DNA of 64,000 nucleotides from a virus: the IMG/VR virus record IMGVR_UViG_3300037501_000241, one strand, 5' to 3'. This document shows, one piece after another, positions 9,632-23,737 of the stretch (positions are counted from its first letter, which is position 1; each line of letters begins with the position of its first letter). Both the position numbers and the translations under genes were made by a program. The notes under the pieces are model-generated. The model made no database searches, had not been told where the DNA came from, and saw only the letters and a program-made list of their open reading frames with translations.

Positions 9632-9634
9632 AAA

Positions 9635-10015
9635 GCAAACCGCCCTCCTAACCTACTTACAACCAAATAATAGTTAAAATAAATTGTAGAAATCTTATAC
9701 GAGACTAAAAGCTTTAAAAAAAGCGTATAAGCGTATTAAGTTATCTCCTCTTAACAACACAGCGGTCATAGGAAAAGGAGAGCGGATTAAATTTGTTAAT
9801 AAACATCTTGAAGAGATAGTCATCAGACCAGATGTAGTGGCTCTTCAAGATGCAATGCCTCGTGGCTTAATGTCTCTTTGACAAAAGATAGTTGCCTGAG
9901 ATAGCTAATCTCTTCACGGTTATTGAGATTGGTCAGTTCCCTTCATCCGTAGTTCCTTAAAATCAGCATTGATGATTTTTCCAGTAGTCGGATGACAATT
10001 TATTAAACGACAATA
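9635..10015 (-). ncRNA. Candidate multi-domain structured RNA in the late-operon leader
   Basis: Stems tcatccg/cggatga, aaaatca/tgatttt, aatctc/gagatt, catcttgaagag/ctcttcaagatg (12 bp perfect), cttatacg/cgtataag, ccgctctcc/ggagggcgg. Confidence 0.45.
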
Positions 10016-10038
10016 AACACATTGTATATGTGTTTTAA

Positions 10039-10077
10039 TTATCTCCTCTTTTTTCCCCTCTTTTTACCACACGCCAT
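10039..10077 (-). CDS. Putative 12-aa basic micropeptide MACGKKRGKKRR
   Basis: ATG-TAA frame about 65 nt after the late promoter, in the tttttATG context used by other genes. Confidence 0.3.
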   Translation of the reverse strand: MACGKKRGKKRR

Positions 10078-10148
10078 AAAAATGAAATGCGGTTATGTTT
10101 TTACGCAGATTTGAAAATTTGTTTGCTTAACTTTCATTCTGCAAATAT

Positions 10149-10538: not shown

Positions 10539-10588
10539 AACACAGCCAATCCAGCAAATAACCTTATAATTTAGCTTTAAATAATCTC

Positions 10589-10617
10589 TTGACAATAATT
10601 TTAAGATGTTATATAAT
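10589..10617 (+). promoter_or_regulatory. Consensus sigma70 early promoter
   Basis: TTGACA-17 nt-TATAAT. Confidence 0.9.
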
Positions 10618-10662
10618 GATAATATAAAAGGTCGTTTAATAAAAAAACTAATCTCATCTTAT

Positions 10663-11934: not shown

Positions 11935-12270
11935 ATGTATATATTATTTAATACCGAAACCTTAAAAGCAAAAGAAGTTATAATACCAGCTAACTTAACC
12001 CCTATGGAAGCAGCTATCAAATCTGTTCTCTTGGAAAGAGAAAAAAGAGAAGTCGCAAAAATAAAAAAAATTGATAATAAAAAAAACTTACTTTTACAAA
12101 AAATTAAAGATAATCCTGAAATATCCAAAAGAGAACTTTATAGGAAAATTAATAAATTAAAAGCAAGCGATCTATCTATTTTTATAGATAATTTAATAAA
12201 AGAAAATAAAATATCTTATAAATTCATTCAAAAAGGTAATAAATCAATAGCGGTTTTTACAGCATTATAA
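11935..12270 (+). CDS. Winged-helix DNA-binding protein, paralogue of the C-terminus of 15501..16763
   Basis: LQKIKDNPEISKRELYRKINKLKASDLSIFIDNLIKENKI aligns with LSKIKNNPGITRRILYNKVSGLSSSEMNKIEDSLIDAEKI. Confidence 0.75.
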   Translation: MYILFNTETLKAKEVIIPANLTPMEAAIKSVLLEREKREVAKIKKIDNKKNLLLQKIKDNPEISKRELYRKINKLKASDLSIFIDNLIKENKISYKFIQKGNKSIAVFTAL

Positions 12271-12271
12271 C

Positions 12272-12280
12272 TTATCCACA
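12272..12280 (+). promoter_or_regulatory. DnaA box
   Basis: Perfect TTATCCACA 9 bp upstream of a -35 element. Confidence 0.6.
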
Positions 12281-12289
12281 GTTAATCTC

Positions 12290-12318
12290 TTGACAATAAT
12301 TTTAAGATGTTATACAAT
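12290..12318 (+). promoter_or_regulatory. Sigma70 early promoter (duplicate of the 10589 module)
   Basis: TTGACA-17 nt-TACAAT; 31 bp identical to 10583-10613. Confidence 0.88.
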
Positions 12319-12368
12319 TAAAGTATTCAAGGTCGCTTAATAAAAAAACTAATTTTTAAAACACTCTT

Positions 12369-20429: not shown

Positions 20430-20481
20430 AAATTTAACTTAACCGCCTCCCAAAATAAAATAATGGAAGGCAAAAAATAGT

Positions 20482-20916: not shown

Positions 20917-21002
20917 TTCAATTTTAGTCTGGCTGAAAAGCTGGACTATATAGTGAATTAAATATCCCTCCATAAAAAAATTGTGGGAGATGAATAAATA
21001 CT

Positions 21003-21640: not shown

Positions 21641-22504
21641 ATGAAAAAATACGGATTTTCTTATCAGGGAAGCAAATCAACAATCGCGCAAAATATTATC
21701 AACACATTACCATCGGCTGAAAATTTTTATGATTTATTTGCTGGTGGTTGCGCTATAACTCATTGCGCTTTGGAAAGTAATAAATGGCAAAATGTGATTG
21801 CCAACGATATTCAAAATGCGCCATCTTTATTTTTAAGAGCCATTAAGGGTGAATTTAAGAATGAAAAAAGATGGATAAGCAGAGAGCGATTTTTTAAAGA
21901 AAAAGACAAAGACCCTTATATTCGTTGGATTTGGTCTTTTGGAAATAACGGACAAGCTTATTTATTTGGAAGAGATATTGAAAATTTGAAAAAAGAGGCT
22001 CATATATTTTTATTTGAAAATGGTTATGATTATACATCTGAAAAAAGAGTTAAATTGATTAAATTATTTAAAAAAAAATATAAAAAAGATGAAAGATTTG
22101 AGCTTCAACAGCTTGAACAGCTTGAACGGCTTGAACGGCTCCAACAGCTTGAGCAGCTCCAGCAGCTTGAACGACCACAAGTTTTACAAAAAGATTATAA
22201 AAAAATAAAAATAAAAGCGTCATCAGTAGTTTATTGCGATATTCCATATAACCAAAAAAAAGATAGAAAAAAAGAGTATTACGGAATAACATTTGATACA
22301 AAAGAATTTTATGAATGGGCAAAAACACGAGATTTTCCAGTTTATTTCTCTTCTGTATCTTGTGATGACCCGTATTTCAACGAAGTTTGGTCAAAAGAAA
22401 AAGTGTGCTTAATGAATAATAAAAATTCAATCGGAAATAAAAAAATAATTGAACGATTATTTTGGAATAAAAAAGGAAATAACTTTAAAACAACGCTTTT
22501 TTAA
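21641..22504 (+). CDS. Dam/D12-class N6-adenine DNA methyltransferase with internal L-[EQ]-[QR] repeats
   Basis: YQGSK, DLFAGG, AND and YCDIPY motifs; eight 9-nt repeats at 22103-22174. Confidence 0.88.
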   Translation: MKKYGFSYQGSKSTIAQNIINTLPSAENFYDLFAGGCAITHCALESNKWQNVIANDIQNAPSLFLRAIKGEFKNEKRWISRERFFKEKDKDPYIRWIWSFGNNGQAYLFGRDIENLKKEAHIFLFENGYDYTSEKRVKLIKLFKKKYKKDERFELQQLEQLERLERLQQLEQLQQLERPQVLQKDYKKIKIKASSVVYCDIPYNQKKDRKKEYYGITFDTKEFYEWAKTRDFPVYFSSVSCDDPYFNEVWSKEKVCLMNNKNSIGNKKIIERLFWNKKGNNFKTTLF

Positions 22505-22528: not shown

Positions 22529-22572
22529 TGTGGATAAAAACACTTGACATATATATGGCAATAGTGTAAAGT
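22529..22572 (+). promoter_or_regulatory. Reverse DnaA box plus sigma70 promoter
   Basis: TGTGGATAA (22529-22537) then TTGACA-17 nt-TAAAGT. Confidence 0.65.
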
Positions 22573-22617
22573 AATAATAGATAATCAATACATTCATTGT
22601 GTTGGTTTCGCTAAAAA

Positions 22618-22786
22618 AACCTGCGAGAAAAAATTATTTTAAAATAATTGTGTATCTCGCGGGGCAAACCTGCGAGATTTGTTTATATATAAAGACCCGC
22701 AAGGAGCAAAACTATTGGAGAGTGAATAACTTGACAATTAGTTTTTAACCTTAAATACTCTCGCAGGTTGCGGGTCTTTATGTGTA
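22618..22786 (+). ncRNA. Candidate switch/antisense-type structured RNA
   Basis: aacctgcgaga twice with two complements; tatatataaagacccgcaa pairs ttgcgggtctttatgtgta through G-U pairs. Confidence 0.55.
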
Positions 22787-22828
22787 AATAAATTAGTTAA
22801 ACAAAAAAAGAAATTAACTAAAAAAATA

Positions 22829-22966
22829 ATTCTCGGTGCTTGCGAAGATGCAAGCTAAGTGTCTGTCGTATGCCGAAATGTCAGTAAAAGTTTAGATATT
22901 TACCTCCTCCACAATTTATCTAAATGATGAAGAACAAAGTAGGCGCATAAGAAACAGCCGAGAAAT
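22829..22966 (+). ncRNA. Candidate small RNA with anti-SD loop
   Basis: Closing stem ttctcgg/ccgagaa, hairpin gcttgc/gcaagc, hairpin tttagata/tatctaaa with ACCTCCT in its loop. Confidence 0.5.
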
Positions 22967-22992
22967 TAAAAATTAACATTTCATAATACATT

Positions 22993-23238
22993 ATGAAAAA
23001 ACTATTAAAAAAAATAGAGAATAAATTATATCATTTTGAAGATGGTATAAAAGTAGAGGGAAAAAATAAAGATTTGTTTGGCGATTGCTCTAATTTGTTT
23101 GGCGACTGCTCTGGCTTGTTTGGCGACTGCTCTAATTTGTTTGGCGACTGCTCTGGCTTGTTTGGCAATTTAGACGAATGTGAAATTTCAGATGAAGAGC
23201 GAAAAAAAGGAATTGATATTAAGGAATTGATTAAATAA
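22993..23238 (+). CDS. Small protein with four 7-aa LFGDCS(N/G) repeats
   Basis: 21-nt tandem repeats at 23074-23157. Confidence 0.85.
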   Translation: MKKLLKKIENKLYHFEDGIKVEGKNKDLFGDCSNLFGDCSGLFGDCSNLFGDCSGLFGNLDECEISDEERKKGIDIKELIK

Positions 23239-23642: not shown

Positions 23643-23737
23643 AATATAAATCTTATCTAATATGTTTAGAAATTAAGGAGATTTATATTCGGCAATATAA
23701 GAAATGGTAAAGAAATTAAAAATTAACACATAACTTT

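Follow-up and report, generated by a model that had tools for sequence, protein, structure and literature searches.

The c4 antisense RNA of phages P1 and P7, whose known details are used in the comparison made here, and the immunity region of phage P4 (CI RNA, seqA/seqC) are close described counterparts of the RNA element discussed in this work. A further likeness is found in the C-rich loop sRNAs of the Firmicutes (RNAIII, RsaE, LhrC), which are discrete transcripts with terminators in hosts that depend strongly on Shine–Dalgarno (SD) sequences. In P4, the CI RNA is processed from an untranslated leader and pairs with sites in that leader, leading to termination (PMC4825925). The cuckoo family is defined by 2–4 CCUCCUCCC hairpins (PMC4615179), and the cuckoo/alpha-r14 sRNAs of Alphaproteobacteria (RSs0680/CcsR, NfeR1; PMC4615179, PMC10746234) have, like the present element, a hairpin loop with the anti-SD-like CCUCCUCC.

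The locus considered here resembles the P4 and c4 regions in having an untranslated early-operon leader with two promoters, a terminator, and repeats, a structured module downstream that carries a complementary copy, and a multi-stem unit with a closing stem of 7–8 bp. The complementarity within the same leader is present for an upstream 11-mer cascade but weak for the loop of the module; moreover, there is no sequence or Rfam match to these systems, and processing and lysogeny enter the comparison by analogy alone. The CCUCCUCCA of the element matches the cuckoo motif CCUCCUCCC in 8 of 9 nt, with an exposure that is model-dependent. However, the element has one C-rich loop instead of 2–4 tandem hairpins, this loop may be hidden when a rival fold forms, it is situated in a phage leader without a terminator of its own, the host is probably SD-poor, and no Rfam match is obtained. 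The likeness to RNAIII, RsaE, and LhrC lies in a single-stranded C-rich seed able to pair with G-rich ribosome-binding sites (RBSs), while the lack of a terminator and the probably SD-poor host set the element apart.

Genomic Setting

The window, i.e., the whole stretch of 64,000 nt that was analyzed, holds 1.5 copies of a circular phage genome of 42,364 bp, with 0 mismatches between the copies. The late arm (terminase, capsid, and tail genes) is on the minus strand and the early arm (~10.6–27.7 kb; primase-helicase, Sak4-like protein, methylases) on the plus strand. The nearest relatives of the capsid are at most 55% identical, apart from one fragment at 63%, and a comparison with GenBank phages gave no match. 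The element is located in a 488-nt gap, flanked on one side by a D12-type methylase gene (ending at 22504) and on the other by a gene of 81 aa (starting at 22993), the homologues of which are mostly operon-internal. The sequence of the element is unchanged in both other assemblies of the same phage that span it. No integrase was recognized among the phage proteins scanned, and a role in immunity is therefore not established.

The methylase gene carries a tandem LEQLEQLERL repeat insert (22100–22175). Two strong, near-identical promoters at 10581–10650 and 12270–12345 have in common a downstream AAGGTCG...AAAAAAACTAAT motif, which is resembled by GGTTTCGCTAAAAAAAC at ~22604, 3′ of promoter P1 of the leader. 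Short intergenic hairpins are also found at 20440–20475 and 20960–20992, with C-rich 5′ arms and GGAAGG/GGGAG in the 3′ arms, lying 11–15 nt ahead of where ORFs 20482 and 21003 begin.

Structure of the Element

The multi-stem unit of 138 nt closed by TTCTCGG/CCGAGAA, as reported in the preliminary description of this locus, is indeed present (Table 1). It surpasses 200 of 200 shuffles in folding (z −3.47) and takes rank 8 among 306 genome windows. Since the minus strand folds nearly as well (z −3.24), the plus strand is inferred for the element from the plus-strand promoters. A minus-strand reading with an SD and a small ORF was rejected, the GGAGG having no downstream start codon. The outer frame of the unit is robust: the closing stem P1 has a pairing probability of 0.95–0.98 in the isolated 138 nt with four energy sets, and P1 and P2 together remain at ~0.95 or above across these sets.

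Table 1. Coordinates of the leader, the element, and the late-operon leader in the window
Feature	Position	Strand	Basis
DnaA box (22529–37) and sigma70-like promoter P1, TTGACA-17-TAAAGT (22544–72)	22529–22572	+	consensus match alone
Antiterminator/terminator pair: AACCTGCGAGA twice (22618, 22667) and terminator-like hairpin 22654–78	22618–22685	+	
Long hairpin, ~25 bp including G-U; bears TCTCGCAGGTT (22759–69), complement of both upstream 11-mer copies	22677–22793	+	
Sigma70-like promoter P2, TTGACA-17-AATACT; start ~22766	22731–22759	+	consensus match alone
Structured RNA module with 7–8 bp closing stem and three near-isoenergetic inner folds	22829–22966	+	shuffles, partition probabilities
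Closing stem P1, TTCTCGG/CCGAGAA (22830–36 with 22958–64)	22830–22964	+	robust under every energy set
Hairpin P2, 6 bp with 6-nt loop	22838–22855	+	robust
Rival helices for strand 22893–22902: 10 bp with 22856–65 (three G-U) or 7 bp with 22876–82	22856–22902	+	
Outer helix TATGC/GCATA (22869–73 with 22945–49), can coexist with the 8-bp hairpin	22869–22949	+	
8-bp hairpin of the preliminary description	22891–22924	+	folding of growing transcript, energy sets
Anti-SD-like word ACCUCCUCC; sole ACCTCCT of the genome in non-coding DNA	22902–22910	+	
AGUAGG, internal partner hiding CCUCCU in the rival folds	22938–22943	+	
First early-operon gene, 81 aa, heptad repeats, A/U-rich SD-less start	22993–23238	+	
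Late-operon leader, three AGGAG sites, one of them as AGGAGGG ahead of the first late ORF (9631); possible trans target in a rival reading only	9632–10142	−	

The inner domain contains the hairpin that was described as displaying ACCUCCU. The 8-bp Watson–Crick stem (22891–98/22917–24) and the 18-nt loop (22899–22916), with ACCUCCU at 22902–08, are present, but the display itself is less certain: the probability of the hairpin is 0.04 with Turner 2004, 0.13 with Turner 1999, 0.43 with Andronescu, and 0.87 with Langdon. Strand 22893–22902 has three alternative partners, namely 22917–24, which gives this hairpin, 22856–65, and 22876–82, and in the folds with either of the last two, CCUCCU is paired to AGUAGG. 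The predicted exposure of the anti-SD word hence varies with the energy model, from an open loop to a buried CCUCCU. In foldings of the growing transcript, the 8-bp hairpin leads for transcripts ending at ~22925–35, with a probability of 0.97 at 22925 (Turner 2004), and it is displaced after synthesis reaches 22945 (Turner 2004).

An A-rich segment of 18 nt, identical at 22961–22978 and 23711–23728, precedes ORFs 22993 and 23738; its first copy shares bases with the 3′ strand of stem P1.

The Early-Operon Leader

The element makes up the 3′ module of a ~415-nt leader (22579–22992), which is densely structured: the 417 nt between the first start and the ATG fold at z −8.8. No terminator was found 3′ of the element, and the next ATG, in an unstructured A/U-rich start region, is 28 nt downstream, so that a free-standing small RNA is not confirmed. 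This start region is computed to be unpaired in both states of the module. Upstream, AACCTGCGAGA occurs twice and its complement once, which permits an antiterminator, a terminator, and pairing from the long downstream hairpin. The best partner of the C-rich loop within its own leader is not strong (−9.9 kcal/mol). The terminator/antiterminator cascade at 22579–22793 has a local z down to −6.7 on the plus strand and is a stronger structure than the element itself.

Homologues and Analogues

A homologue search had been suggested for the element, and none was found with Rfam, IMG/VR patterns, blastn, nhmmer, or covariance models. Rfam gave no match at the gathering score and none for the element at E ≤ 10, and its C4-type and cuckoo models do not match the element. 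ARAGORN reported no tRNA or tmRNA, and the hammerhead, HDV-like, and c-di-GMP-II cores do not close when inspected by eye. The DNA-pattern scans of IMG/VR returned nothing, or chance matches in coding DNA or on the strand opposite real SDs; searching phages and plasmids by blastn returned nothing, and nhmmer found no homologue of the element. Covariance models of both folds, which are insensitive because each was built from one sequence, reached at best ≤19.1 bits in capsid relatives, pattern matches, and Patescibacteria genomes. No homologue was detected among the capsid-related loci (~100) or in ~250 scans of Patescibacteria genomes, a set that covers the early arms of a minority of the close relatives, and the element RNA is not upstream of the homologues of the neighboring genes. 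With no homologues, there is no covariation that would back any of the folds.

Analogous structures are found in two other phages. In the SD-less capsid relative G004, a perfect 9-bp hairpin (L396:190–216) has ACCTCCTCC as its entire loop. This hairpin is intergenic and on the plus, transcribed strand, with a stop codon directly upstream and a promoter downstream. A 12-mer common to the phage and G004 is present in 63 of 401 Patescibacteria genomes; these copies were discarded, 29 of the 30 inspected being inside ORFs and the remaining one not in a loop. Two further candidates were rejected: the "target" at ~22120 in G004 is the coding sequence of the terminase Walker B and not an RBS, and a hairpin in G018 is within a gene. 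Phage L430 has the most similar early arm, with five early genes in common with the present phage. Its intergenic leader (L430:10805–11022) has crossing helices and a CCUCC-loop hairpin (z −3.2), and the loop has a cis partner ~70 nt upstream (−19 kcal/mol). According to these folding calculations, the L430 leader is built on the same switch logic with an unrelated sequence.

In shuffles of the region, ACCTCCT appears in 0.3–0.5% and CCTCCTCC in 0.02–0.04% of the cases. For a word that was picked post hoc, the chance of meeting the 7-mer somewhere in all non-coding DNA (~5 kb) is roughly 5%. In 441 intergenic regions of the family, neither the frequency of CCTCC nor its placement in loops exceeds that of pyrimidine control words, and the stems of the family's intergenic hairpins commonly contain C-rich and G-rich tracts.

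SD Use and the Host

The starts of the phage genes had been described as mostly SD-less, and the count agrees with this. A strong SD-like site (ΔG ≤ −6.5 with ACCUCCU) precedes 2 of 56 genes, which is the background rate, as 4% of random windows are at ≤ −6. The capsid family is likewise at background level: of the 1078 starts scored in genomes and loci among the ~100 capsid-related ones, 42 have an SD. SD use on the host side, also called for in the preliminary description, was counted in the tentative host group: a strong SD is found in 28 of 278 Patescibacteria genes (20 sampled stretches), i.e., ~10% versus 2.5% background. SD use amounts to 33–85% in five of the six controls. The 16S 3′-end word with the anti-SD is present in 112 of 201 sampled Patescibacteria genomes, and about half of the Parcubacteria are without an anti-SD (PMC9297842).

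The sole hint about the host is L053, a relative in both capsid and terminase and the sole relative in the genome collection; its contig of 14 kb is binned in a Saccharibacteria MAG. The assignment is tentative, because L053 is one distant contig, possibly mis-binned. Bacteroidota promoters are unlike the TTGACA/TATAAT type, and the promoters of the phage, being of this type, speak against a Bacteroidota host. The host is probably Patescibacteria-like and SD-poor, and the SD loss of the phage most likely mirrors that of its host instead of being an escape from a decoy. As the SD absence is family-wide and probably host-derived, the premise of an SD-selective shut-off of the host is gone.

Proposed Role and Alternatives

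The best explanation, which we hold tentatively and with slightly less than even confidence, is that the module belongs to a control leader that switches conformation in a P4 CI/c4-like region, with the C-rich tract as the switching strand. The stretch 22579–22992 would then be the 5′ leader of the early operon, and the phage would infect an SD-poor host, probably one of the Patescibacteria. In the computed folds, P1 and P2 form a stable frame around the inner domain, in which strand 22893–22902 may take any of its three partners. In one computed state the C-rich tract is open in a loop, and in the other states it is paired internally with AGUAGG; the open state is predicted to be favored ~100 nt into the module and to be displaceable with further synthesis. 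Upstream of the module, a putative terminator/antiterminator pair would be combined with the long hairpin complementary to both 11-mer copies. The leader modules, in cis or excised, may in this way set the read-through or the stability of the operon in the style of P4 CI and phage P1 c4, and the C-rich tract would be a switching or pairing strand and no weapon against host SD sequences.

This reading draws on the folding of the leader (z −8.8) with its two promoters, terminator-like site, and repeated and inverted 11-mers, on the lack of a terminator after the module together with the nearby ATG, and on the three near-equal folds with their length-dependent switching. The comparable cis logic of the L430 leader, the family-wide SD absence, and the logic of P4 CI (PMC4825925) point in the same direction. 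Against it, no output platform is evident, as the module is without a terminator and the start region is unpaired in both states. The near-equal folds can also be explained by model error alone, and the local rarity of the word (0.3–0.5%) and the identical 9-mer in a simple loop of G004 fit the switch reading poorly.

These last two observations, the G004 loop being ACCTCCTCC on a perfect 9-bp stem, instead favor a cuckoo-like anti-SD RNA that is cut from the leader and pairs with few SD-like sites, an alternative that we regard as somewhat unlikely. The P1-closed unit does resemble RNase P-processed leader RNAs, e.g., c4 and CI, and its loop is open with the Langdon set and partly so with the Andronescu set. 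The aSD loops of NfeR1 are known to silence targets (PMC10746234). The targets would most plausibly be the phage's own late leader, the translation of late genes being delayed, or the minority of host mRNAs led by an SD, which the ~10% of sampled Patescibacteria genes with a strong SD would supply. Among 57 phage genes, the RBS that the loop matches best is indeed that of the first late ORF (9631, AGGAGGG; −13.8 kcal/mol). AGGAG occurs 3 times in the late leader versus 0.43 expected (P 0.007, post hoc). However, a match to some RBS that is just as good is obtained with 29% of shuffled loops, and the best duplex of the loop on the phage sense strands (−18.2) is average among shuffled loops. Two of the three late AGGAG sites are paired within the leader's own fold, and the late SD is not kept in relatives. 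Anti-SD loops are not enriched in the 441 family intergenic regions, and the element has a single loop, not 2–4, and no terminator. These matches lend no strong support to a possible late-gating role of the loop. The late leader (9632–10142, minus strand) is itself structured and contains AAGAGGAGATAA twice, and its AGGAGGG is the strongest SD-like start in the SD-less genome. The fuller scenario, in which an SD-poor Patescibacteria phage makes a switchable, leader-derived anti-SD RNA that gates a few SD-tagged messages (its own late leader or a host subset), is distinctly improbable in our estimate; in it, a generic anti-SD seed would become specific because SD-like sites are rare in the system.

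The decoy originally proposed, which would silence SD-dependent host mRNAs and spare the SD-less phage mRNAs, is very unlikely. The SD-less phage genes, the anti-SD word in a loop, and the 112 of 201 Patescibacteria genomes with the 16S word are compatible with it, but SD loss is seen in all relatives, where no copy of the RNA was found, and the likely host rarely uses SD (PMC9297842). A single loop of uncertain exposure and without a dedicated terminator is also ill-suited to titrating a transcriptome. What survives of this proposal is that the word is unusual, is able to sit in a loop, and recurs as the same 9-mer in a relative's perfect intergenic hairpin, so that the element may have some anti-SD function; the selectivity premise of the proposal does not survive, an SD-dependent host being unlikely. 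The module could also be a passive structured leader (a stability element, a processing site, or an insulator) with an incidental C-rich word, as might be suggested by the C-rich and G-rich tracts common in family hairpin stems, the ~5% chance of the 7-mer in non-coding DNA, and the lack of any conservation found. We consider this unlikely, since the three-partner strand and the neighboring competing helices look organized and the same 9-mer is in the G004 loop. Finally, ACCUCCU matches the 16S tail, and the RNA might mimic the 16S rRNA 3′ end and bind a protein, such as the Era KH domain, the bS21/bS18/bS6 anti-SD pocket, or an anti-SD-cutting toxin. Era reads the GAUC before the anti-SD, and the word in the element is without a preceding GAUC and is not at a 3′ end. 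Ribosomal proteins are known to sequester the anti-SD in Bacteroidetes (PMC7797042), but even so we judge the mimic extremely improbable.

Conclusions

To our knowledge, RNA regulation in viruses of the ultra-small Patescibacteria is essentially undescribed. The present value of the element is modest, as it is a candidate from a single genome that comes from sequence and folding computation. If it is a cis switch, as in the conformational leader that we tentatively prefer, it would represent a P4/c4-like control region of a kind not yet catalogued. Should the loop act in trans, anti-SD seeds would be at work even in a system in which few genes are initiated from an SD, with rarity providing the specificity, and a leader-derived anti-SD RNA, if true, would mean that a CPR virus has a timing circuit based on a small RNA.
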